This document shows, in pieces, positions 5,380-62,705 of a DNA stretch of 64,000 nucleotides (the stretch's first letter is position 1; every line of letters begins with the position of its first letter). The stretch covers positions 199 to 64,198 of the forward strand of contig JAMOMC010000188.1 of NCBI GenBank assembly GCA_027068765.1, in the 5' to 3' direction. This stretch comes from Campylobacterales bacterium (GTDB taxonomy: Bacteria; Campylobacterota; Campylobacteria; Campylobacterales; QNZT01). The position numbers and the translations under genes are program-made. A model generated the notes under the pieces. The model was not told where the DNA came from. It made no database searches and worked only from the letters and a program-made list of their open reading frames with translations.

Positions 5380-8214
5380 TTAGACAAGTAGAGCTTGTTC
5401 TTTCTCTTCATATACAAAAAGTTCAGGCTTATCTTTAGGCTCTCCCAAATAAAACCCTTGAGAATAATCAGCCCCCATCTCTTTAGCGATGTTATAAACA
5501 TCTTCATTGTGTACAAACTCTACGATAGTTTTTCTATTTAGTTTTTTACAAAATGAGATAATTGCTTTTGTAATTATTTTTGCATCTTCATCTTTATCTA
5601 TATTTTTCACTAAAGAGCCATCAATCTTTAGATAATCAGCATCTAGTGCCAAAATATGCTCAAAATTAGAGTAACCACTTCCAAAATCATCAATTGCAAC
5701 TTTTGCTCCAAAGCTCTTTATCTCTTTTATAAAATCTGAAACTTTAGAGTAATCAGCAATTTCTTCAGACTCCACAATCTCAAAAATAACTCTTGAAGGT
5801 TCATTGAAATTTTGAAGAGACTTTTTTACAAATTTTGTTGTTTCATAGTCTTCTATATCTTCAGGAGATAAGTTGATTGAAAACTCATATGGTAAATCTC
5901 TAAAAGTATCAAATGATTTTTGTATCACAATTTTAGTTATTTGGCTGTAAAGATTTGCTTTTTTGGCAATATCTAAAAAGAAAAATGGTGACACAACACT
6001 TCCATCTTCTTTTATAAGTCGTACTAAACTCTCATATTTATTAGCTTTTGCTGTTTTATTGTCTATAATTGGTTGAAAATATATGACAATCCTATCATTG
6101 GCAATTGCATCTTTTATGGTCTCAATCCAGAGCATATTATTTGCATAATCATTCTTTTTTTGCATAGATTCATCATAGACAAGATATTTTTTATTTGCTT
6201 TTTTTGCACTTTTTAAGGCTGATGATGAAGTTTGGATAAGTGAAGTCAACTCTTTTTTAGCATCTAACTCATCCCCAAATGATATACCAGCTGTTACTGA
6301 AAGAGAGATTTGATTCTCCTCATATTTTATCTTATTTGCTTCAACATACTTTATGATTTTTGATACAAAGTTTACATAATCATCGTGAGAAAAAGAGCCT
6401 AAGTCATTTAAAATTGCAAACTCATCAGCGTGAAGTTTATAAAGATCCACTCGACTACTTTTTGCAATTTTATTTAAAACCATACTAAGTTCAATAAGCA
6501 CTCTATCTCCAACTTGGCTTCCATAAAAATCATTTAATTCGCCAAAAGAGTTGATATTTATAAGCATCATTACAGGATTTTTTATAGTTACCAAATCTTC
6601 TAACATCTGATTTCTATTTGCAAGTCCTGTCAAAAGGTCAGTTCTCTGTTTTTTTAATTCCTCTTTTTTATTTTCTAGCTCAGTTATATCATGTCTTACA
6701 GCTACATATTCATATATCTCACCCAATTCATCAAGTATCGGTATGATAGTTGCATCTACAAAGTAAGCTTCGCCATCTTTTCTTCTATTTTTAACTTTTC
6801 CATGCCATACTTTTTTATCTTTTAGTGTTGCCCACATCTGTTTAAAAGCTTCTTTTGGCATATCAGGATGTCTAATGACACTGTGAGGTTTGCCGATAAG
6901 TTCATTATATCTATATCCTGATAATTCACAAAATTTATCGTTTATATAAGTTATAATTCCTTTTTTATTTGCTTTTGAAACTATACTACTCTCATCTATT
7001 GCCATTTTATATCCACTTAAAAATGACATGTTTGTCCTAATTTTATTGCCCATAAAATTGAAGCTATTTATTACTTCTCCAAGTTCATCGTTTGTGTTGT
7101 GATTGATTTGTACATTTGTATTACCATTTGCTACTTGTAAAGAGGCATCTTGTAGTTTTTTTAAGCCACTCATGATAGAGAGATAAAATGCAGCAAAGAG
7201 ATAAAGTAAAACTGCTGTTGAAACTAAAAAGATAAGTAGATATTGTGCAAATTTATTTTCTATTTTTTCTATTTTTTCAACAATAATACTTTGATATGTT
7301 ATTGCTAATTGATCATATAAATCAAAAACATGTTGTAAAACTTTTGTACCATTTTTAAAAAAGTTTTTTGGATTAAGAGTTAGTTCTTGAGTATTTATAA
7401 TGTGGTTATTGTATGAGTTTAAAAATGTTATTAGTGAGTTATTTGTAGATTTTATCTTTAACTCTGTTTTTTCATAATTTTTTTGCTTAGTTAAGCTATG
7501 GTGGGCTTTTATAGAATCCATACTAGATGTGATAGTAGCATATAGATGCAAGCTATCTCTTTTATCTTCTAAAGCTACCTCTTTTCTTGCTAATATTCCT
7601 GCACCAAGTCCTCTAGCTTGACCTACATTTTCTCCAAGTAGAGGTAGTTTATCTGATAAAATAGTTTCTATATAATTTAAGTCTATATCTATACTTTTTG
7701 AGAAACCTGTTAGATTTGATACTCGCTTCATCTCATTTAAAATAATTTCTATCAATTTTGTGTGTGCTATATTTGAGTGTTTGGCATTAGTATTTGTACT
7801 AATTTTGTCATATTTTAAAGCTTCCCAGCTTTTCATAAGATTTTCTATGAGTTTACTATCTTTATAAAGCATTAGATTTTTTTTATCAAAGTTAAGTATC
7901 ATTTCAAAATCTTGTGAAAGATACTTTTCAGACTTTAAAATATCTTTTTTAAAGGACTTATCCCCACTTAGATAAGCATCCATAGCTCCTCTGTGTTTTG
8001 GAATATGTCTTAGTAGGTTTATAAAAATACCATTATATTCTAATCCTACCATTTTACTTTTTAAGACTTCTCTCTCTTGTTGGATATTAAAAAAGATAAA
8101 ACTTACATAAACTAATAGAGGCAGAAGTATAATGGTAAAGAAAACAGATATTTTTCTCTTGTAAGATAATTTATCCATAAGTAGTGTCATGGGTTTTAAT
8201 AAGCTTTCAAACAA
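5380..8214 (-). CDS. membrane sensor: NIT-like domain, HAMP, Aer-type PAS, degenerate GGDEF, EAL (probable c-di-GMP phosphodiesterase)
   Basis: TM, NIT-like KHRGAMDAYLSG and a second TM. PAS shows GKPHSVIRHPDMPKEAF..KNRRKDGEAYFV. The GGDEF position reads LHADEF. EAL residues ESLVR, NLS, EIVESE, DDFGSGYS, KIDG and QGF are present. The TTG start at 8214 is preceded by AGGAG. Confidence 0.85.
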   Translation of the reverse strand: MFESLLKPMTLLMDKLSYKRKISVFFTIILLPLLVYVSFIFFNIQQEREVLKSKMVGLEYNGIFINLLRHIPKHRGAMDAYLSGDKSFKKDILKSEKYLSQDFEMILNFDKKNLMLYKDSKLIENLMKSWEALKYDKISTNTNAKHSNIAHTKLIEIILNEMKRVSNLTGFSKSIDIDLNYIETILSDKLPLLGENVGQARGLGAGILARKEVALEDKRDSLHLYATITSSMDSIKAHHSLTKQKNYEKTELKIKSTNNSLITFLNSYNNHIINTQELTLNPKNFFKNGTKVLQHVFDLYDQLAITYQSIIVEKIEKIENKFAQYLLIFLVSTAVLLYLFAAFYLSIMSGLKKLQDASLQVANGNTNVQINHNTNDELGEVINSFNFMGNKIRTNMSFLSGYKMAIDESSIVSKANKKGIITYINDKFCELSGYRYNELIGKPHSVIRHPDMPKEAFKQMWATLKDKKVWHGKVKNRRKDGEAYFVDATIIPILDELGEIYEYVAVRHDITELENKKEELKKQRTDLLTGLANRNQMLEDLVTIKNPVMMLININSFGELNDFYGSQVGDRVLIELSMVLNKIAKSSRVDLYKLHADEFAILNDLGSFSHDDYVNFVSKIIKYVEANKIKYEENQISLSVTAGISFGDELDAKKELTSLIQTSSSALKSAKKANKKYLVYDESMQKKNDYANNMLWIETIKDAIANDRIVIYFQPIIDNKTAKANKYESLVRLIKEDGSVVSPFFFLDIAKKANLYSQITKIVIQKSFDTFRDLPYEFSINLSPEDIEDYETTKFVKKSLQNFNEPSRVIFEIVESEEIADYSKVSDFIKEIKSFGAKVAIDDFGSGYSNFEHILALDADYLKIDGSLVKNIDKDEDAKIITKAIISFCKKLNRKTIVEFVHNEDVYNIAKEMGADYSQGFYLGEPKDKPELFVYEEKEQALLV

Positions 8215-8249
8215 AAATCTCTCCTCTCATAATTTTCTATATAAAAGCA

Positions 8250-8276
8250 GTATCGACAAAGTTTTAAATAACTTTA
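8250..8276 (-). promoter_or_regulatory. sigma28 (FliA)-type promoter TAAA-N15-GTCGATAC
   Basis: The minus strand reads TAAA gttatttaaaacttt GTCGATAC. The -10 ends 35 nt upstream of the TTG start at 8214. Confidence 0.6.
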
Positions 8277-18220: not shown

Positions 18221-18242
18221 AAATTATTGAGCTATATGTTTA

Positions 18243-18279
18243 GAACTAGAGTTTGAAAAAACTCTAGTTCAAGTTTTTT
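18243..18279 (+). terminator. Rho-independent terminator of the exporter operon
   Basis: Perfect 11-bp stem GAACTAGAGTT-tgaaaa-AACTCTAGTTC, then aagTTTTTT. Confidence 0.75.
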
Positions 18280-18416
18280 GATAGCCCATATTAATAAAGC
18301 CAAATCACTGCATGTGCTTGTTTCTTATGATGAAAAAGCTCAAATATGTTACATTATAACAACATATGAACCAGCTACAAGATATTTTTTAGAAGACCTG
18401 ATAACAAGGAAAAAAA
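18257..18416 (+). pseudogene. 5'-truncated DUF4258-like toxin gene fragment
   Basis: Translation ..KSLHVLVSYDEKAQICYIITTYEPATRYFLEDLITRKK resembles the C-terminal beta-strands of DUF4258 toxins. There is no start codon or N-terminal half, and the frame runs into the next relic. Confidence 0.35.
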
Positions 18417-18661
18417 ATGATAGCAGATGTCCTATCTGTCAAGGATATAAATAAAATTCTTTTACAATATTTACAGTTGATTTGAAGTTTGGTATAATTG
18501 TAGTTCGTGATGTTCCTGCAATGATTTGTGAGCAATGTGGTGAAGAGTGGATTGCAGATAAAGAAGTAGGATAACTAGAGACTATTGTAAACGACGCAAG
18601 GCAAAAACATAGTATGATAGAAGTTGCTAATTTTTCAGATTTGTTGAGGGTTGCTAGTTAA
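18417..18661 (+). pseudogene. disrupted YgiT-type (MqsA-like) zinc-finger antitoxin gene
   Basis: Translation CPICQG..(TAA 18452)..FTIFTVDLKFGIIVVRDVPAMICEQCGEEWIADKEVG(TAA 18572)LETIVNDARQKHSMIEVANFSD. The ATG at 18417 is out of frame with the first Cys pair. Confidence 0.5.
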
Positions 18662-18791
18662 TAATATGGGTTTATGATAACCAATAACCTAAAATTTTGG
18701 ATTTTTTTAAAATATAAAGGTGTGGTGGGGACACTACAGTCTCTTACTTTTAGCTTCATAAGGGTTTTTAGAGATGACCTTAATATACTAA

Positions 18792-18800
18792 TGCTATAAT
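18792..18800 (+). promoter_or_regulatory. extended -10 (TGcTATAAT) promoter element
   Basis: TGCTATAAT lies 36 nt upstream of the ATG at 18836, and AGGAGG lies at 18824-18829. Confidence 0.4.
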
Positions 18801-18835
18801 TTAATTTTTAAACTTATAAAATAGGAGGTAAGAAG

Positions 18836-19495
18836 ATGGGATTATTAGGAACATTAGGAAAAGTTGCGATGGGTGTTATGATTGCTAAGGGTGTTGGAAA
18901 TGCTATGGGTGGTTCAGGTGGACTTGGTGGTATGCTTGGTGGACTTTTAGGTGGTGATAAACAAAGTGGAGGAAATAGCAATCAACAAAGCGGTGGTTTA
19001 GCTGGTGGTTTGGGTGGTTTGCTGAACTCTTTGAGTGGTGGTTCACAAAACAATAAGATATCTACTGCAGATGATAGTAATAATCTTGGAGGATTGTTAA
19101 ACTCTGCATTTGCTGGTGAAGAGGTGACTTCCACACCAGAACAAGAGGAGCAAGCTAAACTTTTATTAAGAGCTATGATAAGTGCTGCTAAGGCAGATGG
19201 TAGTATAGATGCAGATGAGCAGAAGAAAATTACTGAGCATATTGGAGATATTACTCCAGAAGATATAGAGTTTGTAAAAAGTGAGATGCAAGCACCTGTT
19301 GATATTGAAGCTTTGATAGCTAGTGTTCCCTCTGGCATGGAGCAACAAGTTTATATGATGAGTTTATTAGCAATCAATCTTGATTCAAAATCAGAAGCAC
19401 TTTATCTAGACAAACTTGCAAAAGGTTTAAATGTTTCCAATGAAGTAGCTGATTCAATTCATGAAAAATTAGGAGCAGCCAAACTATATAGTTAA
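18836..19495 (+). CDS. DUF533/TerB-family (YebE-like) protein with Gly-rich N-terminal region
   Basis: The C-terminal half (LLLRAMISAAKADGSIDADEQKKI...YMMSLLAINLDSKSEALYLDKLAKGL) fits the DUF533/TerB fold pattern. The N-terminus carries GGLGG repeats. Confidence 0.7.
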   Translation: MGLLGTLGKVAMGVMIAKGVGNAMGGSGGLGGMLGGLLGGDKQSGGNSNQQSGGLAGGLGGLLNSLSGGSQNNKISTADDSNNLGGLLNSAFAGEEVTSTPEQEEQAKLLLRAMISAAKADGSIDADEQKKITEHIGDITPEDIEFVKSEMQAPVDIEALIASVPSGMEQQVYMMSLLAINLDSKSEALYLDKLAKGLNVSNEVADSIHEKLGAAKLYS

Positions 19496-20547
19496 CTCTT
19501 ATTTGCACTTTTAAAGACAAAAGCTAAGACCTCTGCAACAGCTTTGTAGAGGTTCTCTGGTATCACTTCATCTATGTTAGCAGATTTGTAAAGTTCTCTT
19601 GCTAATGGAGGATTTTCTATTATTTGGATTAGGTGATTTCTACCTATCTCTTTGATTTTTAAAGCTATCTTGTCTGCTCCTTTTGCTACTACTCTTGGAG
19701 CAGACTCTTTTTCTTTATCATATCTTAGTGCTACTGCAAAATGGGTTGGGTTTGTGATGATGACATCTGCACTTGGAAGTTCTGACATCATTCTTTTTTG
19801 TGCTAATTGCATCTGTACTTGTTTTATTTTAGCTTTTATTAGAGGATCACCTTCCATCTGTTTGTACTCATCTTTTACCTCTTGTTTACTCATCTTTAAA
19901 TCTTTAAAGTATTGATAGCGAACTATCATAAGATCAACCATTCCTAAAACAAAAAATATCATAAGCATAATCAAAACCATTATGATGATTTTTTCAGCTA
20001 ACCACTTCATCTGGCTCATAATGTCAAAATTTATAACAGTTGGAAGCTCTTTTGTATACTCTATCAAAAAGTAAAATGCAATTACAAAAACTATAATTAC
20101 TTTAGCAGTTATCTTAATACCCTCTATAAGTTTTTTCATAGAGATTAGTTTTCCAAGACCTTTAATAGGGTCAATCTTTTTTAAATCAGGAGTAAGAGGC
20201 TTGGTAGTATATACAAAACCAAACTGCACAAGCCCAGCAACAATACCAGAAAGAGCAACGATAGAAGCAATAGGGAGTATCATAAAAACAAGCTCTCTTA
20301 ATGAGATAAAACCGATATCAAATACAATTGTGGTAGTTAGAGGCACACCTATGAGTGACATATAATATTCATATATAAAAATTATCCTCTGCATAATAAA
20401 AGGAATAAAAATATATACAGCTACAACAGCAACTAAAAGAGTTATAAAAGAGCTTGTATCTTGACTTTTTGGGACATTTCCCTCTTTTCTTGCATCTTCT
20501 ATTTTTTTGGAGGTTGGCTCTTCGGTTTTCTCCATATCATCAGCCAT
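19492..20547 (-). CDS. flhB: flagellar type III export gate protein FlhB
   Basis: Motifs EKTEEPTSKKIEDARKEGNVPKS, four TM segments, the NPTH autocleavage site (ITNPTHFAVAL) and ENPPLAR. Confidence 0.92.
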   Translation of the reverse strand: MADDMEKTEEPTSKKIEDARKEGNVPKSQDTSSFITLLVAVVAVYIFIPFIMQRIIFIYEYYMSLIGVPLTTTIVFDIGFISLRELVFMILPIASIVALSGIVAGLVQFGFVYTTKPLTPDLKKIDPIKGLGKLISMKKLIEGIKITAKVIIVFVIAFYFLIEYTKELPTVINFDIMSQMKWLAEKIIIMVLIMLMIFFVLGMVDLMIVRYQYFKDLKMSKQEVKDEYKQMEGDPLIKAKIKQVQMQLAQKRMMSELPSADVIITNPTHFAVALRYDKEKESAPRVVAKGADKIALKIKEIGRNHLIQIIENPPLARELYKSANIDEVIPENLYKAVAEVLAFVFKSANKS

Positions 20548-22428: not shown

Positions 22429-22455
22429 TAAATCTTTTTTTAATATTGCCGATAA
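22429..22455 (+). promoter_or_regulatory. sigma28 (FliA)-type promoter, exact TAAA-N15-GCCGATAA
   Basis: TAAA (22429-22432), a 15-nt T-rich spacer, and GCCGATAA (22448-22455). It lies 74 nt upstream of the GTG at 22530 (SD AAGGAG). Confidence 0.65.
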
Positions 22456-22529
22456 ATAGAAGTGTGAGCCAACTTTTAATATGTGAGGTTATTGAAAAAC
22501 CTTTTACCATCTAAAATAAAGGAGAAGCC

Positions 22530-24791
22530 GTGAGTGAAAAAATGATAGAAAAACTTGTAAAAAAATCAAAGAACTTAAAAGTGCTATATGTGGAAGATGA
22601 TGAAGAGACCAGAATCTTTACGCTCCATATGTTAGAAGAATTTTTTAATAAGGTTGTTGTGGCAGTTGATGGGCTTGAAGGGCTTAGAAAATATGAATTA
22701 GAACATTTCGATCTAGTTATTGCTGATATTACTATGCCAAATATGGATGGAGTGGTAATGAGTAGAGAGATTTTGGAGATAGATAAAAATCAATCTATTA
22801 TTATAATGTCTGCATATAGTGAATCACCTATGCTTATGGAATTAATGAATATGGGAGTTGAGTATTTTATTCAAAAACCTATAGATTTAAAACAAGTTGT
22901 AGATATATTTTCACAGTGTGTAACTAAAAATTTAGAAAAAAGAGATTTTCTTGAAAATGTTAAAAAGATAGAAGATTTAAATAAAGAGTTAGATTCTCTA
23001 ATAGGTAGTTATGATAAATATGTCATAGCTTCAAGAACTGATCCAAAAGGTAACATCACTTATGTTAGTGAAGCATTTTGTAAAATTGCTGGATATAAAG
23101 AGAGTGAACTTATAGGAAAACCTCACAATATGGTAAGACATCCTGATATGCCAAAAGAGGTTTTTAAAGAGTTATGGGAGAGTATCAAAAGTGGAAATAT
23201 TTGGCAAGGTGAAGTTAAAAATATTAGAAGAGATGGGACTCATTATTGGGTAAAAGCAGCTGTGGGTCCATATTATGATCAAAGTAGTGGAGAGCTGTTA
23301 GGTTATAGTGCAATTAGAGAGGATATAACTTTTCAAAAAGAGGTTTTAGAACTTGGTTTAAAACTAAAAGCCCAATCTAAACAGATGAGTGATCTTTTAA
23401 ATAATGCAGGTGAGGGGTTTTTATCTTTTGATGAAAATTTGATTGTTGAACAGACTTTATCTCGTGAAGCCTTAAAGCTTTTAGGAGATGAAGTTGCTGG
23501 TAAAAACATAGCAACTGTTTTGTATGCAACTGATGATAAAAAAAGAGAGTTATTTAAAGATATTATCGGGAATATCTTGGCAATTAATGATGATTTATCT
23601 AAAGAGATGATGCTTTCACTACTTGAAAAAGAGTTATCTTTAGGTGATAAAACTCTTGAGTTGGAGTATAAGTTTTTAGGTGAAAATAGATTTATGTTGG
23701 TTATTAGTGATATAACGGAGAAAAAATTTCTTCAAAGAGAGATAGAGTATGAGAAAAAAACTCAAAAAATGATAGTTTCTATTGTAAGCAACTATGATGA
23801 GTTTTTTGAATTAATTAATGATTATGAGAGTTTTGTTAGTACAATCGATTGTTATTTAGATAACAATACTTTAGTAGAATTAAAAAGAGAGATACATACT
23901 TTTAAAGGTCTATTTGCTCAAAAAGAGATGTTTAATACTGTAAATGGACTGCATAACATTGAAACACAGATGAATGTCTGTATAGAAAGTTCACTAAATA
24001 AACATCTATTTGAGGGATGGTTAGCTTGCGATATGAGGATAATAAAAAAAGTTTTAGGGGATGATTTTTTAGCAAATAGGGATAAGATATCTATTAGTTG
24101 CGATACTTTAGCTCAAATTGAGGAAAAAATTACCATAATTTCTGAACATTATAAAGGGGAAGAGCTTGATTTGTTATTGGGACAAATTCAAAGTTTAAGA
24201 GATAAACCTCTAAAAGAGTTACTATCAAATTATCCTGATATGGCTCAAAAAATTGCTAATAAACTTGAGAAGTCAATTTATGCTTTTGAGATTAAGGGAG
24301 ATAAAAATCTTAAAGTTTCACAAAAATATAAGCCGTTTTTAAAATCACTAGTTCATGTGTTTAGAAATAGTATCGATCATGGCATCGAGGAGTTAGATCT
24401 TAGAGTCCAAGATGGTAAAGATGAGATTGGAAGTATCAAATGCCAATTTTCACACCTTGATGACCAGCTTATACTTGAAATCTCTGATGATGGAAAAGGA
24501 ATAGATGTAGATGTTCTTAAAGAAAAAGCTATATCTAGTGGAAAATTATGTCCAAAAGTAGCTGAAAAATTAACTCATAAGGAACAGTTAGAGTTAATTT
24601 TTGTTGATAGTATTAGTACAAAAGATAATGTTAATGAGCTATCAGGAAGAGGTATAGGGCTTGGTGCTGTAAAAGCTGAGATTGAAAAATTGGGTGGAGT
24701 TTTGGAGATAGAGAGTAAAAAAGGTATAGGAACTACTTTTACTTTTAAGACAAAATTAGAAGAGTTAGGAGTAGAAAATGCAAATGTATGA
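22530..24791 (+). CDS. hybrid REC-PAS(Aer-type)-PAS-like-HPt-CheA-core kinase lacking a CheW-like P5 domain
   Basis: REC (Asp66 in VIADITMP) and PAS (GKPHNMVRHPDMPKEVF..KNIRRDGTHYWV). HPt-like His456 (EIHTFKG). CheA-type N-box HVFRNSIDHGIE, G1 DDGKGID, G2 GRGIGLG. The protein ends 41 aa after G2. Confidence 0.85.
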   Translation: MSEKMIEKLVKKSKNLKVLYVEDDEETRIFTLHMLEEFFNKVVVAVDGLEGLRKYELEHFDLVIADITMPNMDGVVMSREILEIDKNQSIIIMSAYSESPMLMELMNMGVEYFIQKPIDLKQVVDIFSQCVTKNLEKRDFLENVKKIEDLNKELDSLIGSYDKYVIASRTDPKGNITYVSEAFCKIAGYKESELIGKPHNMVRHPDMPKEVFKELWESIKSGNIWQGEVKNIRRDGTHYWVKAAVGPYYDQSSGELLGYSAIREDITFQKEVLELGLKLKAQSKQMSDLLNNAGEGFLSFDENLIVEQTLSREALKLLGDEVAGKNIATVLYATDDKKRELFKDIIGNILAINDDLSKEMMLSLLEKELSLGDKTLELEYKFLGENRFMLVISDITEKKFLQREIEYEKKTQKMIVSIVSNYDEFFELINDYESFVSTIDCYLDNNTLVELKREIHTFKGLFAQKEMFNTVNGLHNIETQMNVCIESSLNKHLFEGWLACDMRIIKKVLGDDFLANRDKISISCDTLAQIEEKITIISEHYKGEELDLLLGQIQSLRDKPLKELLSNYPDMAQKIANKLEKSIYAFEIKGDKNLKVSQKYKPFLKSLVHVFRNSIDHGIEELDLRVQDGKDEIGSIKCQFSHLDDQLILEISDDGKGIDVDVLKEKAISSGKLCPKVAEKLTHKEQLELIFVDSISTKDNVNELSGRGIGLGAVKAEIEKLGGVLEIESKKGIGTTFTFKTKLEELGVENANV

Positions 24792-25242
24792 AGATGTTTT
24801 AGGTGCACTTATCGATAGAATGGAGAGTTTTGTTGGTGAAGATATGGGAATTGAGATTTTGGATAAAAATATATGTACCAAGGTTTGTGAGTTTGAGTTG
24901 TTAGATTGTATGACGATTATTGGTTTGGGTGGAGATTTAAATGCTTTAACGGTGTTTAGTTTTGATACCTTTTTGATTGATAAACTTGTGGAGTCTTTTA
25001 TCTATGGAGAGGTTAGCCAAGAGGAGAGAGCTGAACTCTCAAAAGAGATACCTGCTGAAGTTGCAAATACAGTAATTGGAAATGCAATACCAAATTTTCC
25101 AAACTCTGGAAAAGGAGCTACTATAACTCCACCAATTATTATAGAAGATGCAAAGCTTGCTAGAAAATTAAAAGACTCTAGTGTCTTAATGGCTATGATT
25201 AAAACAAAATATGGAAATGCACAGTGTGCACTATTAAATTAA
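24778..25242 (+). CDS. cheX: CheX-like chemotaxis phosphatase (CheC/CheX/FliY superfamily)
   Basis: Pattern IGLGGDLNALTVFSF, catalytic ExxN (E94-V-A-N97 in PAEVANTVIGNA) and ATITPPII. Overlaps the kinase gene by 14 nt. Confidence 0.8.
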   Translation: MQMYEDVLGALIDRMESFVGEDMGIEILDKNICTKVCEFELLDCMTIIGLGGDLNALTVFSFDTFLIDKLVESFIYGEVSQEERAELSKEIPAEVANTVIGNAIPNFPNSGKGATITPPIIIEDAKLARKLKDSSVLMAMIKTKYGNAQCALLN

Positions 25243-25257: not shown

Positions 25258-25656
25258 ATGTTAAATGTAATGGTTGTAGATGATTCATTAATCATAAGAA
25301 GAAATATAAAAAAGATGCTAATAGAGTTAGGATGTAATGTTGTAGCTGAAGCGGTAAATGGACAAGAGGCGGTTAAATTATATGCAAAATACAATCCAGA
25401 TGCGGTAACTATGGATATAACAATGCCTATAAAAACAGGTATAGAAGCACTCAAAGAGATAAGAAAAGATTGTAAAGATGCAGTAATAATTATGGTGACT
25501 TCACATGGTCAAGAAGAGCTTGTAATGGATGCTATAAAAAATGGTGCAAAAGGGTATCTTTTAAAACCTGTGACTATTGATAAGTTAACAATTGTATTTA
25601 AAAAAGCTTTTCCTGAGTTAACATTTGAGGCAAAAAAAGAGCTAACCGCAGTGTAA
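25258..25656 (+). CDS. cheY: single-domain CheY-like response regulator
   Basis: 132 aa with VVDDS, MDITMP, TSHG and KGYLLKP. SD AAAGGAG upstream. Confidence 0.85.
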   Translation: MLNVMVVDDSLIIRRNIKKMLIELGCNVVAEAVNGQEAVKLYAKYNPDAVTMDITMPIKTGIEALKEIRKDCKDAVIIMVTSHGQEELVMDAIKNGAKGYLLKPVTIDKLTIVFKKAFPELTFEAKKELTAV

Positions 25657-46826: not shown

Positions 46827-47237
46827 TTGGTATATCTCACTCTTTTTGGTGTCTCATTTTTGGCAGCAACTCTGCTGCCACTTGGGAGTGAAGCACTACT
46901 ACTTTACGATATTTCACTTGGATATGATATCTCATTATTAATTTTAGTCGCCACTATCGGAAATACTCTTGGCTCAATTGTTAACTACTTTTTAGGTTTA
47001 AAAGGAGTTGATTTTTTAATTTCTAAAAAGTATACAAAAGAGAAACAGTTAAAAGATGCAAGAAAAATATTTAAAAAATATGGAGCTTTTTCACTTCTTT
47101 TGTCTTGGGTTCCAATTATCGGAGATCCTATCACTTTTATAGCTGGGGTTTTGAAGTATGATATTAAGAAGTTTATTTTGATTGTTTTTTTGGCAAAAGG
47201 GGCTAGGTATGTTGTGGTGAGTCTGTTTATTTTATAA
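46827..47237 (+). CDS. YqaA/DedA-related small membrane protein
   Basis: Motifs PLGSEALLLY, ATIGNTLGSIVNYFLG and GDPITFIAG. TTG start. Confidence 0.7.
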   Translation: MVYLTLFGVSFLAATLLPLGSEALLLYDISLGYDISLLILVATIGNTLGSIVNYFLGLKGVDFLISKKYTKEKQLKDARKIFKKYGAFSLLLSWVPIIGDPITFIAGVLKYDIKKFILIVFLAKGARYVVVSLFIL

Positions 47238-47763
47238 CATTTATAGGTTTGGATAAATATTTTAAAGTAAATTCGCTAAGAATATATTTTACACCTTTAC
47301 TTTCAAGAACATAGTAGGTAGTTTCTCCATTGAAAGCATCTTCATAAAAATGTACTTCTACAAAAGTAAATTGAGTTTCAGGTGGGATATGTTGATTTAC
47401 TTTTTCGCTATCTAATTTAGGATGCATCTTGGTTAACTCTTTTTCAATATCTCTAACTATTGGCACAATTGATGGATGTTTTCTTATGATATATCCTAAT
47501 GGTTGAGGAAAAGAGATTTTTTTGCCAATTTTAGGATGATTTTCTATTTTTAGATTGGTTGTGTGATTTAATTTTTTTAATGTTCTTACAAAATTTGGTT
47601 CACAACTAGAGATAAAAAAAATTATAAAGAAGAAAATAAAAAAACTATAAAAAATTATTAATCCAATATTGCTAGTTTTTTTATTATTTTTTTTTAATAA
47701 TCCACATCTTGGGCATTTATAAAGATTACCAAAATAATAATTGCCACAATTATCGCATTTCAT
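47227..47763 (-). CDS. hypothetical zinc-ribbon / single-TM membrane protein
   Basis: Zinc ribbon CDNCG..CPRCG, a TM segment (IGLIIFYSFFIFFFIIFFI), then a roughly 115-aa extracytoplasmic domain. No family recognised. Confidence 0.55.
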   Translation of the reverse strand: MKCDNCGNYYFGNLYKCPRCGLLKKNNKKTSNIGLIIFYSFFIFFFIIFFISSCEPNFVRTLKKLNHTTNLKIENHPKIGKKISFPQPLGYIIRKHPSIVPIVRDIEKELTKMHPKLDSEKVNQHIPPETQFTFVEVHFYEDAFNGETTYYVLESKGVKYILSEFTLKYLSKPINVIK

Positions 47764-47790
47764 AATAATACCAGTTCCTTATATTAAGTA

Positions 47791-49979: not shown

Positions 49980-51887
49980 TTAATTTAGAATTAGCTTAAT
50001 TTTTACAGCTTGAACAGCTCCATCATCAAATGCATCTACATATGGATTTGATGATCCACCAAGATTTAAAGCAAACTCTGTTGGCTCAAAAGTTCCAGGA
50101 TTTCTAACAAATGATCTATCAAATGTACCATTTGGCATCTTCTCATGTAGAGTTAAATGCATTTTTATAGGTCCCTCTTGTGTTAAGTTTTTAACTAATA
50201 TACTTTTAGCTACACTAGAAACACCTGTAGCATCTCCCGCAGCTATAAGTCTAGTAAAATACTTTCCAGGATTAAATGAGAACTCATTTCCTATTGTAGC
50301 ATCGTCCATCTCTTTATTTGTTGTAACTATCATAATACCAGTTGTTTGTTCTAGTTTTTTTGCAGTGAGTAAAACTTTACTATCTGCTGGTGATGAAAAA
50401 TATAGTTTTTCTCCACTTCTTGCCACATCTATTTCGATTACAGCACTCATATACTCTTTGTTTGGAGTATTTTCAGCTTGATTATTTGTAAAGTGCAAAA
50501 CCATAGTTGCTGCAAATGTTCTTGTGTCACCATCATTTAAATTAAATGGGTTATTGTCATTTTCAAAAACATGACTTTTTATAGAAAATAGTGGCTCAAT
50601 ATAATCTTTGATTAACTCAAACTGTGCATCTGTATCAAGATTTTTTGCACTATCATTTAGACGAATATATTTTTTCTCTATCCATACATGTTCTATTCTA
50701 TTTTCACCCTTACCATTTTGTGCAAACTCTGGTATTACATCATTTAAGTCTGAGCTAGCTTGATAGAGTAGCATTCCTCCGTCTGGAGTATTAGAATCAT
50801 TATCAATTGAACCTAACTCTCCAAAATCTGCAGCAAATTTAAAGTTGTCAGCTTGTGGTCCACACACGATAGAAGCAGAACCACTTAAGTCTAAATTTGA
50901 ACATGTTGTTATTGTAGTTGGTGTATCGTTATCTGTTATAGGAGTAGTTTGTGGATTAATTTTGGCAGTTTTAGCCATTTTTACACCTTGGGCATAAAAG
51001 TTTGTATTGTTATTTATGTTTATCGTTACCCAAGACTTAACTGAAAGTGCAGCAGTTTGGTTAGTTACTGCTGTTAATGAAGCTAAATCATCATCTTTTA
51101 AACCATCAGTTGCTAACTCTTTTATTGCACTCATTATCACTACAATTGCATTGTAAGCTATCTTTTTTTGCTCAGCTGTTCCTGTATAATCAGATGTAAG
51201 ATTCATAAGCATATCTGATATACTCTCTAACATCTTCTCTTGATCTGGTGATAATTTATCCATAAGAGCTTGGTTTTGTTTTAATAAAGCAGTACTTGTA
51301 CCAGTACTGAGTACACTATAAGCAGATTCACTCAATGGCTCAGTTAATGCTCCGCCTGCATACTCAAATGCATCTTTATATGGTATGTTAAAATATGTAA
51401 GTGCTTCTTGCATATTTAATAGGTAGTTTTTTTGTGCTAATGAGAGTGGGGTAGGTACATTTAAGTTGTACTCTTTATTTAAGTAGTTTGAGAGACTTAA
51501 ATTTGCTGTTTCACCAACAACATCACTTGATAGATTTAAAGTAATTAAGTTATCATCTTCACTATTTGCTTGCTCATCATTTCCTGTTCCTTTTGCACCA
51601 GATTGTAGTACAACATAAGATGGCTTTGTGCTTAATTTGGTTAAAGAGTAAGTTCCATTAGCATTTAACTCTGTAGCTCCTAACTCTTCTCCTGTTTCAT
51701 TATATGCTTTAACATCACCTCTAAAAATTTTGCCTACATATGAAGCATCACCACTCACATCATATGTGATAGTCTCTGTATCTGGAGTAGTTGATGGTGG
51801 AGAACTTTTATCACTACACCCACTCAATATAAATACACCTGCTAATAATGCACTCGCCGCTACTTTTGAAATCATACTTTTTTTCAT
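49980..51887 (-). CDS. large hypothetical lipoprotein
   Basis: Start moved to the ATG at 51887 (AGGAG 6 nt upstream), giving MKKSMISKVAASALLAGVFILSGC with a lipobox. About 610 aa of mature protein with no recognised family. Confidence 0.7.
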   Translation of the reverse strand: MKKSMISKVAASALLAGVFILSGCSDKSSPPSTTPDTETITYDVSGDASYVGKIFRGDVKAYNETGEELGATELNANGTYSLTKLSTKPSYVVLQSGAKGTGNDEQANSEDDNLITLNLSSDVVGETANLSLSNYLNKEYNLNVPTPLSLAQKNYLLNMQEALTYFNIPYKDAFEYAGGALTEPLSESAYSVLSTGTSTALLKQNQALMDKLSPDQEKMLESISDMLMNLTSDYTGTAEQKKIAYNAIVVIMSAIKELATDGLKDDDLASLTAVTNQTAALSVKSWVTININNNTNFYAQGVKMAKTAKINPQTTPITDNDTPTTITTCSNLDLSGSASIVCGPQADNFKFAADFGELGSIDNDSNTPDGGMLLYQASSDLNDVIPEFAQNGKGENRIEHVWIEKKYIRLNDSAKNLDTDAQFELIKDYIEPLFSIKSHVFENDNNPFNLNDGDTRTFAATMVLHFTNNQAENTPNKEYMSAVIEIDVARSGEKLYFSSPADSKVLLTAKKLEQTTGIMIVTTNKEMDDATIGNEFSFNPGKYFTRLIAAGDATGVSSVAKSILVKNLTQEGPIKMHLTLHEKMPNGTFDRSFVRNPGTFEPTEFALNLGGSSNPYVDAFDDGAVQAVKIKLILN

Positions 51888-51921
51888 AAAAACTCCTATT
51901 TTAATTTTAAAGCTATTAGCC

Positions 51922-51948
51922 ATATCGACACAATATAGAAAAACTTTT
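51922..51948 (-). promoter_or_regulatory. sigma28-like promoter AAAA-N15-GTCGATAT (imperfect -35)
   Basis: The minus strand reads AAAA gtttttctatattgt GTCGATAT. The -10 ends 34 nt upstream of the ATG at 51887 and overlaps the ORF-track ATG at 51923. Confidence 0.45.
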
Positions 51949-52033: not shown

Positions 52034-52351
52034 ATGAAGACATCACTACTTCACAAATTTAGGACAATAGGAAATATAGAAGGAACTTCATATTTGATAC
52101 TTCTTTTGGTTGCAATGCCTTTAAAATATATTTTTGAGTACCAACTTGCTGTAAAGGTAGTTGGAATGGCTCATGGAGTTCTATTTATAGCATATGTAAT
52201 ACTTCTTTTGATGGCGATGAAAGCATATAAATGGGATTTTAAATATGGAACACTTCTTTTTATAGCTTCACTTATACCACTTGGAACATTTTATACAAAT
52301 AAAAAATTAAAAAAACTACAAGAGGCTGAAGAAGCAAAAGTTACAGCTTAA
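52034..52351 (+). CDS. DUF3817-like small integral membrane protein
   Basis: FRTIGNIEGTSYLILLLVAMPLKY...GMAHGVLFIAY pattern. 3-4 TM segments. Confidence 0.55.
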   Translation: MKTSLLHKFRTIGNIEGTSYLILLLVAMPLKYIFEYQLAVKVVGMAHGVLFIAYVILLLMAMKAYKWDFKYGTLLFIASLIPLGTFYTNKKLKKLQEAEEAKVTA

Positions 52352-52361
52352 AAAGCTGTAC

Positions 52362-52886: not shown

Positions 52887-52959
52887 TTTAAATCTTAAAT
52901 TTTTTTATAGTGTAGCATAAGAAATATCTAGCTATCCTTTCATAATTAAGGATAATTTT

Positions 52960-54219
52960 GTGGAAAAAGTAGAACTTCTCTCACCAGCTGGTAATTTTGA
53001 AAAATTGAAAATAGCATTAGCTTATGGAGCAGATGCAGTTTATGGTGGAGTTAGTCACTTTTCACTTCGTATTCGCTCAGGTAAAGAGTTTGATTATGAT
53101 AGTTTTTTAGAAGCTATTAAATACACTCATAGTAAAAATAAAAAGATTTATGTAACTATAAATGGTTTTCCTTTTAACAATCAGATAAAACTTTTAGGCG
53201 AACATATCGAGAAGATGGCTAGTATGAGTCCAGATGCGATTATCGTTTCTACTCCAGGAGTTGTTAAACTTGCTCATCAGATTGCCCCGCATATTCCAAT
53301 TCATCTTTCAACTCAGGCGAATGTTCTTAATTATCTAGATGCTGAGGTTTATTATGAGATGGGAGTAGAGAGGATAATCGCAGCTCGGGAGGTTAGTTTA
53401 AAAGATCTTATAAAGATAAAGGAGCATCTGCCAAAGTTAGAGTTAGAGGTATTTGTTCACGGTTCGATGTGTTTTGCTTATAGTGGAAGGTGTCTTATTA
53501 GCTCAGTTCAAAGTGGAAGAGTTCCAAATCGTGGAAGTTGTGCAAATGATTGCCGTTTTGATTATACTCTGTATGCTGAAAATCCAGATAGTGGAACACT
53601 TTTTAAAATTGAACAAGATGAGGGTGGAACACACATCATGAATGCAAAAGATATGAATATGAGTGCTTATGTTGATGAGATTTTAAAAAGTGGAGTAATC
53701 TCTTCATTAAAAATTGAAGGTAGGACTAAAAGTGCTTATTATGCGGCTGTTACTGCACGAACTTATAAAATGGCGATAGATGATTTTTATGCAGGAAATT
53801 ATGATGCAAAAAAATATGAAGAAGAGTTAAATACGACTAAAAATCGTGGCTTTAGTGATGCTTATTTGGTGCAACGCCCACACGAGAGAGTTGATACACA
53901 AAATTTAAAAACAGCTATAAGTGATGGGACTTATGAAGTTAGTGGGCTTGTGCTTGAAAATGGGGAGTATTTTATGTGTAAATATAAAACTTATCCAAAT
54001 GTTGAGATAGAGATGATTTTGCCAGAGGGTGAAAATGTGCAAGAGGTTGAAAATGAGATTGGTAAAATATATATAAAAGATACAAAGCCATATATCAAGT
54101 TTTATAAAATTATTACAAATACGGGTAAAGAGTTAGAGAGTGTGCATAGTGGCTATACTTTACCAATTAAATTACCAGCATTTTTACCATCTTTTACTAT
54201 TTTAAGACAACTCTCCTAA
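52960..54219 (+). CDS. U32 family peptidase-like protein
   Basis: Motifs ELLSPAGN, GADAVY, E.FVHGSMC.AYSGRC and SGRVPNRGSCANDCR. GTG start. Confidence 0.85.
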   Translation: MEKVELLSPAGNFEKLKIALAYGADAVYGGVSHFSLRIRSGKEFDYDSFLEAIKYTHSKNKKIYVTINGFPFNNQIKLLGEHIEKMASMSPDAIIVSTPGVVKLAHQIAPHIPIHLSTQANVLNYLDAEVYYEMGVERIIAAREVSLKDLIKIKEHLPKLELEVFVHGSMCFAYSGRCLISSVQSGRVPNRGSCANDCRFDYTLYAENPDSGTLFKIEQDEGGTHIMNAKDMNMSAYVDEILKSGVISSLKIEGRTKSAYYAAVTARTYKMAIDDFYAGNYDAKKYEEELNTTKNRGFSDAYLVQRPHERVDTQNLKTAISDGTYEVSGLVLENGEYFMCKYKTYPNVEIEMILPEGENVQEVENEIGKIYIKDTKPYIKFYKIITNTGKELESVHSGYTLPIKLPAFLPSFTILRQLS

Positions 54220-54243
54220 ATTTTTTTTGCTAATTGTCGATAT
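54217..54243 (+). promoter_or_regulatory. sigma28 (FliA)-type promoter TAAA-N15-GTCGATAT
   Basis: TAAA (54217-54220, includes the U32 stop codon), a 15-nt spacer ttttttttgctaatt, and GTCGATAT (54236-54243). It lies 29 nt upstream of the TTG at 54273. Confidence 0.6.
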
Positions 54244-54272
54244 ATTAAGTAGAAAAAAATTATAAAAGGCTT

Positions 54273-55529
54273 TTGGTGTATAAGATACTTTTGGTTGAAG
54301 ATTCAAAACCAATCTGTTCATTTTTATTAAAAAAAATTAATCGAAATTTAAATATTTCTGTTGACATTGCTTCTACATTTAAAGATGCAAAAAAGTTGAT
54401 AGAGGAAAATCCTGATTATTTTTTAGCACTTTTAGATGTGCATTTGCCAGATATGGATGATACAACTATGGTTGATTTTGTATTAAATAAAAATATACCT
54501 AGTATCATCATGACGGCGGATTACAATAGCGAGACTAATCGTAATTTTTCTAAGAGAAATATTGTTGATTTTGTTTTAAAAGAGTCTCCTGAATCTTTAA
54601 ATTATATTGTCTCTTTAATTGATAGAGTTTTGGAAAACAGTAAAACAAAAGTACTTGTTGTAGATGATTCTAAGGTAGTTTTAAAGCAGTTAGATAAGTT
54701 TTTAAAAAATCAATTGTTTCAGGTTTTTCCTGCAATTTCTCCATTAGAGGGACTTAAAACTATTGAAAAAAATCCTGATATTAAGATTGTTATTATTGAT
54801 TATAATATGGCAGATTTAAATGGTGTGGAGTTTTTAAAAATTATTAGGCGGAATTTCTCTAAAAATAAAATTGCGGTTGTTGGCATTTCTAGTGATGAGA
54901 GTAGTTCTATCTCTTTTTTAAAACACGGTGCAAATGATTTTATAAAAAAACCTTTTATAAAAGAGGAGTTTATCTGCCGTATAAATAATACAGCAGAAGC
55001 ATTAGAAAATGTCATTAAACTAGAAGAGATTGCAAATACTGATTTTTTGACTAAAGTATCAAATCGAAAATACTTTTTTGAACAAGCAGAGCACTATTTT
55101 TCAATAGCATTAAGAGAGCAAAACTCTTGTGCTGTTGCTATGATAGATATTGATAATTTTAAGCTTATTAATGACACTTATGGACATGTTATGGGTGATG
55201 AGGTTATAAAATCATTGGCAAAATTATTGACTGATAATGTAAAAGGGCAAGATATGGTTGCCCGTTTTGGTGGGGAAGAGTTTGTTTTGTATTTAAAAGA
55301 TATATCTCCTTTTTTTGCTTCAAAATTTTTAGATCAGATATGTAAAAAAGTTGCAAAACAAATGATTAGAGTAGAAAATGATAAATATATCAGTTACACT
55401 GTCTCAATAGGAGTTGCTACAAAACAGTCTATGACATTATCAAAAATGATTGATGATGCGGATAAGCTTTTGTATAGTGCAAAACAAAGTGGTAAAAATA
55501 AAATTATTAGCGATCTTGTAATTGCTTAG
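54273..55529 (+). CDS. PleD-like REC-REC-GGDEF diguanylate cyclase response regulator
   Basis: Two receiver domains (LLVEDS..LLDVHLPD and VLVVDDS..IIDYNMADLNG). The GGDEF domain has RFGGEEF, and the I-site position reads KGQD. Confidence 0.88.
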   Translation: MVYKILLVEDSKPICSFLLKKINRNLNISVDIASTFKDAKKLIEENPDYFLALLDVHLPDMDDTTMVDFVLNKNIPSIIMTADYNSETNRNFSKRNIVDFVLKESPESLNYIVSLIDRVLENSKTKVLVVDDSKVVLKQLDKFLKNQLFQVFPAISPLEGLKTIEKNPDIKIVIIDYNMADLNGVEFLKIIRRNFSKNKIAVVGISSDESSSISFLKHGANDFIKKPFIKEEFICRINNTAEALENVIKLEEIANTDFLTKVSNRKYFFEQAEHYFSIALREQNSCAVAMIDIDNFKLINDTYGHVMGDEVIKSLAKLLTDNVKGQDMVARFGGEEFVLYLKDISPFFASKFLDQICKKVAKQMIRVENDKYISYTVSIGVATKQSMTLSKMIDDADKLLYSAKQSGKNKIISDLVIA

Positions 55530-57483: not shown

Positions 57484-57526
57484 CTTTTTCCTTCTTTTTT
57501 ATTTTAATTAAATTGATAAATCATCT

Positions 57527-60644: not shown

Positions 60645-62642
60645 TTAATGAACTCTACAAGTAAACTCAGCAAGAGAGCTTTTAAGTTCATTTGCTGTAT
60701 TTTTAAGCTCTTTTGTTGTTTGTGTAGCACCAAAGATACTATCTCTATTTTCAGAAGAAGATAATTTTATCTCTTGCATAGTGGAGACAAATGTTTTCAT
60801 CATTTTTGAAGATTCTACTATCTTAGTTGTTGTTGTATGGACATTATCAACAGCTGTTTTCATGACTTCGCTCACTTCGTCAACTTCTTGATGAACTTCA
60901 TTTGATGTTTGTGTGAGAATGCTTATGTTCTCTACATTCTTGTTCATCTCTCCACTCGTATCTATGATTGCTTGAACGATTACACTTATAGTTGCATTAA
61001 TTTCGCTAAGTGACTTTTGTGTTCTTTCAGCTAGTTGTCTAACTTCATCAGCAACTACTGCAAAACCTCTTCCGTGTTCTCCAGCTCTTGCTGCCTCAAT
61101 TGCTGCATTTAGAGCGAGTAGGTTTGTCTGGTCTGCAATATCACTTATAACACTAAGCACAGATTTTACTTGCTCAGCATCTCCACTTAATTGATTTAGT
61201 TTTTCGGCTAACTCTATTTCACTATGAGAGTTATCACTCATTTTTTCTATCATATTTAAAATTTTTTCTCTAGCACTCTCTAACTTATCTTGAGCTTGCT
61301 GTATATTATCTTTTGTTATATTTGCTTCATCTGTTGAGCTAGATAGTGTATCTTGTAGCTCTCTTGCGCTATTTGCAGTCTCCTCAATCATCTTAGCTTC
61401 ACTCTCGATATTTTGAGTTATATCTTGAAATATATTGTCTATTTTGTCTGTAGCCTCTTGGTTTTGTTTAGTTCCACTTTGAGCATGGCTTATGGCATCT
61501 GATGTACCAACCACCAAAGAGCGTACAGATTTTGCAATTGAGCCTATCTCATCACTGCTTGAAACATCGATAATATTTGTTAAATCTTTTGTACCAACTA
61601 TATCTTCAATTTTCAGTTTAAGTTTTGAGATGGAGTTGTTTATCCCTTTAATTAAAGAGATTGCAAATAAGATATTAAATAAAATTGCAATAGTTGCTAA
61701 AATAGAGTGAAGTAGTAGTGATGAAGTAACTTCATCTTCAAATATTTCGATATTTTGATCAAGATATTTAGCCGTCTCATCATCAATCTCTTTTAAGATA
61801 TTTATCTTTTTAGTAATTTGTTCAAACCAATATACACTATCAACACCAAATTCTCCAACAGTTGCTTTTTGTATAGCTATATCTCTCATTTTTTGAACCT
61901 CTTTGACACTTTGTGCATCCATCTTTTTCTCATAAAATGAAAAAAGCTCATTTGGTGCAAAACCTTTAAAAGTTTTTATAAAAGCATTTTGTTCTCCTAG
62001 CAAGTCTACAAATGTATGGTGAGATTTACTTGTAAATTTATCTTTTGCAAAAACACCACTCATAACAGCTCTTTCAACTCCAGCTCTCTCTTTTGCTTCT
62101 AAAAAGACAAAATAAGAGGCTAGTGCTTTTGTGATTTCATTTTGAGGAGAATTTCTTGTATTATTACTTGCGATACTGAGCATCTTTGCATTCATATTTG
62201 TATAGTAAGCAACTGTATCTTTTAACTCAATATTTAGTGTTGAGATTTTCTCTCTCATATTGTCAAGACGATTTAAATCTTTTAACAATGTAACTGTTCT
62301 ACTTTTTAATTCATTTGGAAAATTAGAAAATTGGAAATTATCTATAAACTCTATAAATTTCTTTTTTTGTTTGTTAGTTAATTTTCGTTGGTTTGCAAGT
62401 TTTTCTTTAAACTTTACTCCATTTGAGCCAACAAATCCAGCACTTGCACCTCTCTCTTTTTGAGTCTCATGTAGTATGAGACTTATCTCTTTACTTAGCT
62501 GTGATAACTCTTTTACTTTTGCAACATCCTCTTTTATGACTAAATCATTAAAAATTATTGAGCCTGTGAAAAATATAATTAACAGTGAGGGAATCAATGT
62601 TAAAGTTATTAGCTTGGTTCTGATTGTTAGATTTGAAAACAT
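60645..62642 (-). CDS. methyl-accepting chemotaxis protein with NIT (nitrate/nitrite-sensing type) periplasmic domain
   Basis: TM, the NIT hallmark [18 protein letters not shown], a second TM, HAMP, and a signalling domain with [37 protein letters not shown]. Confidence 0.9.
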
Positions 62643-62678
62643 GTGCTTGTCCTTTGAGTTTTTTTGGTCGTAGCATAT

Positions 62679-62705
62679 GTATCGGTAGAAATGAAAAAAT
62701 CTTTA
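62679..62705 (-). promoter_or_regulatory. sigma28 (FliA)-type promoter TAAA-N15-ACCGATAC
   Basis: The minus strand reads TAAA gattttttcatttct ACCGATAC. The -10 ends 36 nt upstream of the ATG at 62642. Confidence 0.55.

Follow-up and report, generated by a model that had tools for sequence, protein, structure and literature searches.

Boxes and genes at the locus

This work concerns a family of short intergenic elements in a 64 kb stretch of DNA from an uncultured Campylobacterales bacterium (contig JAMOMC010000188.1), which is referred to below as the window and which has a G+C content of 31.8% and is about 95% coding. Each element, or box, consists of a TAAA-like sequence, a spacer of 15 nucleotides (nt) and an octamer with the invariant core CGAT, and the six boxes, including the focal site at 22429-22455, are very probably promoters read by RNA polymerase carrying a sigma factor of the sigma-28 (FliA) type. 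The letters and coordinates that a first-pass annotation of this DNA had given for all six boxes were borne out, and the spacer is exactly 15 nt long in 6/6. The boxes and the genes that they precede, together with a flagellar gene of the window, are listed here, where the scores come from a weight matrix derived from these same six sites and aa stands for amino acids.

5380..8214, minus strand: HAMP-PAS-degenerate GGDEF (HADEF)-EAL protein (Pfam, motif reading, orthologue comparison)
8250..8276, minus strand: sigma-28-type box TAAA-N15-GTCGATAC, predicted promoter of the phosphodiesterase gene; score 18.6
19492..20547, minus strand: flhB, flagellar export gate gene, stand-alone (Pfam PF01312, E 3e-121)
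22429..22455, plus strand: sigma-28-type box TAAA-N15-GCCGATAA (focal site), predicted promoter of the CheA-like kinase/CheX/REC operon; score 16.9
22530..24791, plus strand: REC-PAS-HPt-like-CheA-type kinase lacking the P5/CheW-like domain (Pfam; CheA P3/P4 in PDB)
24778..25242, plus strand: CheX-like phosphatase gene, its start overlapping the end of the kinase gene (Pfam PF13690)
25258..25656, plus strand: single-domain CheY-like receiver gene (Pfam PF00072)
47227..47763, minus strand: near-orphan protein of 178 aa, with a Cys4 zinc ribbon at the N-terminus and a single transmembrane segment
47791..47817, minus strand: sigma-28-type box TAAA-N15-GTCGATAT, upstream of the zinc-ribbon protein gene; score 18.1
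49980..51887, minus strand: 635-aa lipoprotein (lipobox LSGC), lineage-restricted (sequence; only seven homologues among 5.8 billion proteins)
51922..51948, minus strand: sigma-28-type box AAAA-N15-GTCGATAT, upstream of the lipoprotein gene; score 16.1
54217..54243, plus strand: sigma-28-type box TAAA-N15-GTCGATAT, upstream of the cyclase gene; score 18.1
54276..55529, plus strand: REC-REC-GGDEF diguanylate cyclase (Pfam, sequence)
60645..62642, minus strand: NIT-sensor methyl-accepting chemotaxis protein (Pfam PF08376 and PF00015)
62679..62705, minus strand: sigma-28-type box TAAA-N15-ACCGATAC, upstream of the chemoreceptor gene; score 15.6

As had been claimed for them, the boxes are all co-oriented with the adjacent gene and lie 27-74 nt before its start codon, a distance that reaches at most 86 nt with alternative start codons. 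They are found in divergent and co-directional intergenic regions alike, each directed toward the adjacent gene, and 6/23 of the intergenic regions of at least 40 nt in the window contain one. The TAA of the box at 54217..54243 doubles as the stop codon of trhP (peptidase U32), and the focal site agrees letter for letter with the sigma-28 (FliA/SigD) consensus, as the first-pass annotation had pointed out.

Restriction of the boxes to promoter positions

Because the genome is 32% G+C, TAAA is a common sequence in it and, further, the pattern was defined after the sequence had been looked at, both of which could favour an interpretation of the boxes as chance matches, AT-rich compositional artefacts or remnants of a dispersed repeat. 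However, a second-order Markov model predicts for [TA]AAA-N15-[GA][TC]CGATAN only 0.049 matches in the intergenic DNA of the window (viz. about 3.2 kb, or about 5% of its length) and 0.66 in the whole of it, whereas exactly six matches are observed on the two strands and 6/6 are intergenic. The stricter pattern TAAA-N15-GYCGATAY has 3 matches vs 0.00 expected from shuffles, and if the pattern is widened to [TA][TA]AA-N15-[GA][TC]CGAT[AT]N, then the same six boxes and no others are recovered. The octamer contains CG, which is disfavoured in AT-rich DNA, and among its 32 occurrences in the window (as [GA][TC]CGATAN) the -35 element [TA]AAA accompanies 6/6 of those that are intergenic, but 0/26 of those in coding sequence. 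The latter include the octamers GTCGATAT at 44462 and 57055, whose lack of a -35 element had been noted at first pass, and the proposal made there that the bipartite box is confined to promoter positions holds in the window; coding and antisense DNA do not carry the motif as often as promoter positions do, and the strict pattern has 0 matches in the coding DNA of the window. The weight matrix that the same annotation had proposed leaves a clear gap in a scan of the window, where the six boxes score 15.6-18.6 and the next best site scores 12.9. No repeat family includes the boxes and their flanks and spacers are unrelated, due to which a dispersed repeat (resembling a repetitive extragenic palindrome or a miniature inverted-repeat transposable element) was rejected. 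With the additional facts, described below, that the boxes are conserved across species despite divergent flanks and that in control loci the pattern is rare and lies inside open reading frames (ORFs), the chance or repeat explanation is already refuted and its remaining probability is negligible.

Housekeeping sigma-70/80 promoters, which have an extended -10 sequence TGnTAtAAT and no fixed -35 element, were also considered and rejected, as there is no TAnAAT hexamer at the -10 position of the boxes and the hexamers overlapping the CGAT core (GATATT, GATAAA, GATACA and GATATG) do not fit it. A generic sigma-70 scan of the window remained at the background level (80 found vs 75 expected), the sigma-54 consensus gave two exact matches in it, both in coding sequence and not above chance, and Rfam and tRNA scans of the window detected no RNA genes.

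Two other sites in the window are described for completeness. The candidate at 57417-57443 on the plus strand, CAAA-N15-GTTCGATAT, was rejected, since it has a low score and lies antisense within an unlisted 63-aa ORF. This hydrophobic ORF (57300-57491, minus strand) has its own ribosome-binding site and is located directly 3' of a gene for a 486-aa protein of the pyridine-nucleotide-disulphide oxidoreductase family. A seventh match to the core, TAAA-N15-TCCGATAA at 11841-11867 on the minus strand, is antisense to the 3' end of a gene for a 1220-aa GEVED-domain protein; its score is 11.9, it lacks the T-tract of the spacer, and it may have arisen by chance or act as an antisense promoter of low strength.

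Conservation of the boxes upstream of orthologous genes

In order to place the window, its TrhP protein was used as the query in a search of genomes, one for each species, and the identities were 85-87% for loci L002-L004, 78-80% for L005-L010 and about 70% for Arcobacteraceae; on this sequence evidence the window belongs to an uncultured Campylobacterales clade. Locus L001, from an ENA metagenome, is of the same species as the window.

Both half-sites, with divergent spacers between them, are kept upstream of the orthologues of 4/6 genes, viz. those for the cyclase, the phosphodiesterase, the kinase and the lipoprotein. One example is the cyclase gene, for which six orthologous loci (51-70% aa identity) were compared: following trhP in L002, L003, L005, L009 and L010, the sequence TAAA-N15-G[CT]CGATAT is kept and the spacers are unrelated, and in L004 the variant GTCGATTA is found. 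In L006 and L007 the cyclase gene is absent and the box is absent too. The lipoprotein orthologues of three species (L162, L164 and L165; 55-68% identity) are preceded by cAAAAg-N15-G[CT]CGATTT, so that even the atypical AAAA at -35 is shared with the window.

For the kinase gene, the box reads TAAA-N15-GCCGATTC in L167 (59% identity) and TAAA-N15-GTCGATTC in L173 (50%). In L166 and L169 the gene lies within an operon and lacks the box, and for the homologue from Arcobacteraceae (L171, 44% identity) the upstream region is TTGACA-type and sigma-70-like, also without the box. In a scan of JGI metagenomes for relatives of the kinase, one close match (L082) ended before the promoter and the others were unrelated and informative on background only. 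The full-length phosphodiesterase orthologue in L169 (54% aa identity) has TAAA-GTTATTT...-GTCGATTA at a distance of about 70 nt from its ATG; when M13 is taken as the real start of the window protein, the box-to-start distance in the window is 71 nt, vs 70 nt in L169. The sole homologue of the zinc-ribbon protein, in L170, is distant, lacks the box and has an unclear start codon, and the box of the chemoreceptor gene could be compared only with the same-species copy in L001, where it is kept with one single-nucleotide polymorphism in the spacer.

Correspondence with the mapped FliA promoters of Campylobacter jejuni

The FliA promoters of C. jejuni have been mapped by differential RNA sequencing (Dugar et al. 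2013, Table S6; PMC3656092). Those of Cj0391c and Cj0977 read TAAA-N15-GTCGATAT and TAAA-N15-GCCGATAT, respectively, the flgM promoter has TTAA at -35, transcription starts 7-9 nt after the octamer, and the consensus was given as 'TTT N10-12 CGAT[AT/TT/TA]' (PMC3656092). A natural C-to-T polymorphism in the CGAT core abolishes promoter activity in C. jejuni (PMC3656092). When scored with the matrix derived from the window, the promoters of Cj0391c and Cj0977 reach 18.1 and 18.2. Among 27 boxes that occupy promoter positions in the window or in its relatives, T is present in 18-21/27 sites at spacer positions 8-12, which is equal to the 'TTT N10-12 CGAT' rule of C. jejuni. T is also found at position 19, an A lies 8 nt after the octamer in 18/27 sites, which is the position expected for the transcription start, and the alternation of A and T at octamer positions 7-8 (CGATAT, CGATTT and CGATTA) agrees with the C. 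jejuni consensus. The T-tract, the T at position 19 and the downstream A formed no part of the search pattern.

Alternatively, the boxes might not be promoter elements but operators to which a transcription factor, such as a response regulator, binds. Several of the signalling targets could share a regulator, and a site just upstream of a gene would fit an activator. However, the boxes are neither palindromes nor direct repeats, but asymmetric, with two unlike half-sites at a rigid spacing of 15 nt; they are strictly co-oriented with the gene at a promoter-like distance (27-86 nt from start codons), and their format equals that of the known sigma-28 promoter. An operator is thus a highly improbable explanation.

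Distribution of the boxes in Campylobacterota and the link to motility

The occurrence of TAAA-N15-[GA][TC]CGAT[AT][ACT] in the window and in different sets of loci is as follows.

Window (64 kb): 5 in promoter position, 0 elsewhere
Clade relatives (229 kb): 10 in promoter position, 2 in other intergenic positions, 3 inside ORFs
Other cheZ-positive Campylobacterota (351 kb): 0 in promoter position, 5 inside ORFs
cheZ-negative loci, mainly Arcobacteraceae (765 kb): 0 in promoter position, 1 in another intergenic position, 6 inside ORFs
Miscellaneous metagenome loci (648 kb): 2 in promoter position, 9 inside ORFs

One of the two promoter-position matches in the miscellaneous loci comes from a sample that also contains contigs of the clade. 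For Arcobacter, the absence of FliA, FlgM and RpoN has been reported, and the family Arcobacteraceae is reported to have lost FliA (PMC2147049, PMC9321776).

The gene upstream of trhP in the relatives is cheZ. The order cheZ-trhP strictly co-occurs with the F3 chemotaxis class, all members of which keep FliA-FlgM (PMC9321776). In seven relatives (L002, L003, L004, L006, L007, L010 and L021), a box precedes cheZ or a small ORF followed by cheZ; its -35 sequence is TAAA in L002, TTAA in L003, L021 and L006, TCAA in L007 and L010, and TTAT...ACCGATAT in L004. The upstream regions of cheZ in the more distant, FliA-bearing Sulfuricurvum and Sulfurospirillum contain no box, but sigma-70-like promoters. 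Within the window, the stand-alone flhB indicates that the organism is flagellated and that its flagellar genes are scattered.

The small ORF (about 83-105 aa) between the box and cheZ, seen at 3221-3472 in L006 and 8877-9194 in L007 and also in L005 and L010, is an unannotated partner gene of cheZ with the conserved ending ...(K/T)(E/Q)(V/I)RELLEDFA. At the place of cheZ in the window (52034-52959) there is a DUF3817 gene and a fragment of 174 aa, methylase-like, on the opposite strand.

Breadth of the regulon and the identity of the sigma factor

As the first-pass annotation had proposed, the reading of the boxes as sigma-28/FliA promoters is supported by their C. jejuni format, by the T-tract and the downstream A, by their conservation upstream of orthologues and by their absence from promoter positions in the mainly Arcobacteraceae loci. 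However, four observations weigh against it. Other FliA-bearing Campylobacterota have no promoter-position boxes around trhP (0 in 351 kb); cheZ no longer adjoins trhP in the window, as it still does in the closest relatives; the window and the fetched loci contain neither fliA, flgM and flagellin nor any further gene of the late flagellar class; and the boxes have a several-fold higher density than in C. jejuni, which could mean that the sigma factor is not purely flagellar. With respect to the second of these, the sequence at the place of the missing cheZ points to a local rearrangement or insertion. The third includes searches by phmmer and tblastn with E. coli FliA, C. jejuni FlaA and Salmonella FliC N-termini, which gave no matches in these loci. 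The presence of fliA and flgM in this genome is presumed, with the cheZ-trhP pair of the relatives and the flhB of the window as indirect evidence.

In regard to density, C. jejuni 81-176 has about 20 primary starts with a FliA motif in 1.6 Mb. The window has 6 boxes in 64 kb and its relatives have roughly 4-5 in every 100 kb, and the density in the sampled DNA is about 5-8 times higher than in C. jejuni. In the 21 kb of L167, from the same metagenome as L001, five boxes are in promoter position, upstream of genes for a YkuD transpeptidase, a lipoprotein, a DUF2059 protein and an HDOD protein and of the kinase operon, and in L173 the box-like sequences TAAA-N15-TCCGATAT and TAAA-N15-TCCGATGA are found before another NIT chemoreceptor gene and a divergent chemoreceptor operon. 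Because this sample is small and was partly picked through box-linked genes, an expanded regulon should be taken as a hypothesis and not as a result. With considerable doubt, we suggest that a FliA-type sigma factor here might have an enlarged regulon of about a hundred primary promoters (one per 10-20 kb), dominated by signalling and envelope genes, and might act as a general 'motile-lifestyle' factor, perhaps partly uncoupled from flagellar assembly. If this were true, then the regulon would comprise envelope proteins and, for signalling, c-di-GMP (cyclic di-GMP) enzymes, HDOD proteins, PAS kinases and chemoreceptors, and the sigma factor would be more than a small, late-flagellar one.

In L167, at 272-323, two of the boxes point away from each other between the divergent YkuD and lipoprotein genes, one on each strand, and their -35 elements share 2 nt (TTTAAA).

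A further interpretation is that the boxes serve another alternative sigma factor, either one of the extracytoplasmic function (ECF) type or a FliA paralogue uncoupled from flagellar assembly, with a broad signalling and envelope regulon and with a specificity that is similar to that of sigma-28 by coincidence. In its favour are the unusually high density, the many non-flagellar targets (the YkuD, lipoprotein, DUF2059 and HDOD genes of L167, and the lipoprotein and zinc-ribbon protein genes of the window) and the fact that fliA was not seen in the window or fetched loci; further, Legionella oakridgensis is reported to keep FliA and FlgM without having flagella (PMC5655016). However, every letter of the motif agrees with the mapped FliA promoters of C. 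jejuni, and the T-tract of the spacer does so too. Typical ECF promoters are of the GAAC / CGTC type, which the boxes are not. The genes for CheZ, the chemoreceptor and the CheA/CheX/CheY relay are of the classical motility class, the window contains flhB, and the FliA regulons of C. jejuni and Legionella hold non-flagellar genes as well. Based on these points, another sigma factor is improbable, and a sigma-28 (FliA)-type factor is the preferred reading.

Proteins encoded by the genes downstream of the boxes

The gene descriptions of the first-pass annotation proved mostly right by Pfam and motif reading, except that the NIT sensor assigned to the phosphodiesterase was left unconfirmed, as its match is faint (Pfam E = 0.24; BLASTP against the NIT domain of the chemoreceptor, E = 0.07). 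Since the GGDEF motif of the EAL protein is degenerate (HADEF) and its EAL signatures (ESL, DDFGSG) are intact, it is likely a c-di-GMP phosphodiesterase; its start codon may really be M13 at 8178. The cyclase has an intact GGEEF motif, lacks the RxxD inhibitory site and begins with a GTG start (MYKILLVEDSK). The P3/P4 core of the kinase matches CheA in PDB with an E value of 1e-31, and the motifs HTFKG (HPt-like) and HVFRNSIDHGIE are present; as the P5 domain is absent, 'CheA-like' is a fair label for it. The zinc-ribbon protein belongs to no Pfam family and has 3 matches only among 5.8 billion proteins. The AlphaFold model of the lipoprotein (mean pLDDT 54) was too poor for a fold search; a middle domain, at about residues 140-320, is confidently helical in it, but as a whole the model is poor.

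The kinase family of this kind (REC-PAS-HPt-CheA P3/P4 without P5, with CheX and a receiver) is widespread in Campylobacterota, with more than 440 homologues, and apparently uncharacterised; many of these homologues are 900-aa versions in which CheX is fused to the kinase. The PAS domains of the phosphodiesterase (6748-6984) and the kinase (23025-23261) show about 70% DNA identity over 237 nt, the orthologues of these two genes are convergent neighbours in L169, and in L173 the kinase operon adjoins a NIT chemoreceptor gene. The likeness of the PAS domains and these gene neighbourhoods suggest a single functional module that senses the same signal.

Two other regions of the window are also mentioned here. 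The largest gap without a called gene, 18221-18835 (615 nt), has no Rfam or tRNA match and contains short ORFs with CxxC zinc-finger motifs (18278-18454 and 18482-18574) that resemble remnants of a toxin-antitoxin pair. The 124-aa ORF at 60217-60591 on the plus strand consists of imperfect repeats of 33-36 nt, each encoding approximately DGAKDAVSGGAS, and its strand is backed by the gene call in L001.

Proposed mechanism and its significance

If the boxes function as the FliA promoters of C. jejuni do, then the -35 element TAAA and the -10 element G(C/T)CGAT(A/T)N, at a fixed spacing of 15 nt with a T-rich stretch, would drive the adjacent gene, and by analogy with C. jejuni and Helicobacter pylori transcription would begin about 8 nt past the octamer and the 5' untranslated regions would be roughly 20-80 nt long. 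The predicted starts are at about 8241-8243, 47782-47784, 51913-51915 and 62670-62672 on the minus strand and 22462-22464 and 54250-54252 on the plus strand. By the same analogy, FlgM would hold the sigma factor inactive until the hook-basal body is complete and, because of this gating, the six transcription units would come on together with flagellin in newly motile cells. As in other Campylobacterota, the six units would then be members of the late flagellar class, which the first-pass annotation had also envisaged. These units would encode the NIT chemoreceptor, the PAS-CheA-like kinase/CheX/CheY relay, the PAS-EAL phosphodiesterase, the REC-REC-GGDEF cyclase, the lipoprotein and the zinc-ribbon membrane protein, and the motile cell would thus gain sensory input, a sink for c-di-GMP and a signal-gated source of it, viz. 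a cyclase controlled by phosphorylation.

The boxes provide a regulon prediction for uncultured environmental Campylobacterota, which have large and unstudied c-di-GMP and chemosensory networks. The phosphodiesterase, the gated cyclase, the PAS-CheA-like/CheX/CheY module and the nitrate/nitrite-type chemoreceptor are predicted to be co-expressed with the flagellar filament, and the orphan lipoprotein (635 aa) and the zinc-ribbon membrane protein gain a first functional context.

Comparison with known FliA regulons

In E. coli and Salmonella, the class 3 promoters (TAAA-N15-GCCGATAA) control fliC, tar/tsr, the cheA operons, the phosphodiesterase PdeH/YhjH and the PilZ brake YcgR. The focal site at 22429 carries the same consensus letter for letter. 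However, the flagellar genes of these organisms are under the master regulator FlhDC, for which there is no counterpart in Campylobacterota, and the window set, unlike theirs, includes a diguanylate cyclase and prefers GTCGATAT over GCCGATAA as the -10 element. The logic is nonetheless alike, with a late class that comprises a c-di-GMP phosphodiesterase beside chemoreceptors and the kinases and phosphatases of chemotaxis, and FliA control of the chemoreceptors and PdeH/YhjH is established in E. coli (PMC6119863).

The FliA promoters of C. jejuni (flaA, flaG, flgM, Cj0391c and Cj0977; PMC3656092) are from the same phylum and share with the boxes the sequence TAAA-N15-G(C/T)CGAT(A/T)(T/A). C. 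jejuni likewise shows a T-rich spacer and non-flagellar targets, and one of its chemoreceptor genes has a secondary start with a FliA motif. However, the transcription starts and FliA dependence were measured in C. jejuni and are deduced for the boxes of the window, and the targets in the window are dominated by c-di-GMP and chemosensory proteins, which are largely missing from C. jejuni.

Similar control of c-di-GMP turnover is known from Legionella pneumophila, where lpp0952 (PAS-GGDEF-EAL) belongs to the FliA regulon (PMC5655016), and from Pseudomonas putida, where bifA is under FliA (PMC5300878). In both cases a phosphodiesterase is expressed from a sigma-28 promoter, so that completion of the flagellum leads to low c-di-GMP, as is proposed here, although these are Gammaproteobacteria and their cases have experimental proof. 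As FliA control of such genes is known from E. coli, Pseudomonas and Legionella, a specialist would find the mechanism expected, and the novelty lies in the lineage, in the apparent density of the promoters and in the targets themselves, viz. a cyclase gated by phosphorylation, a PAS-CheA-like/CheX/CheY module that is uncharacterised, and two orphan proteins of the envelope. Beyond what is seen in L. pneumophila and P. putida, the window set adds the REC-REC-GGDEF cyclase and the CheA-like relay to the genes predicted to be transcribed from sigma-28 promoters.

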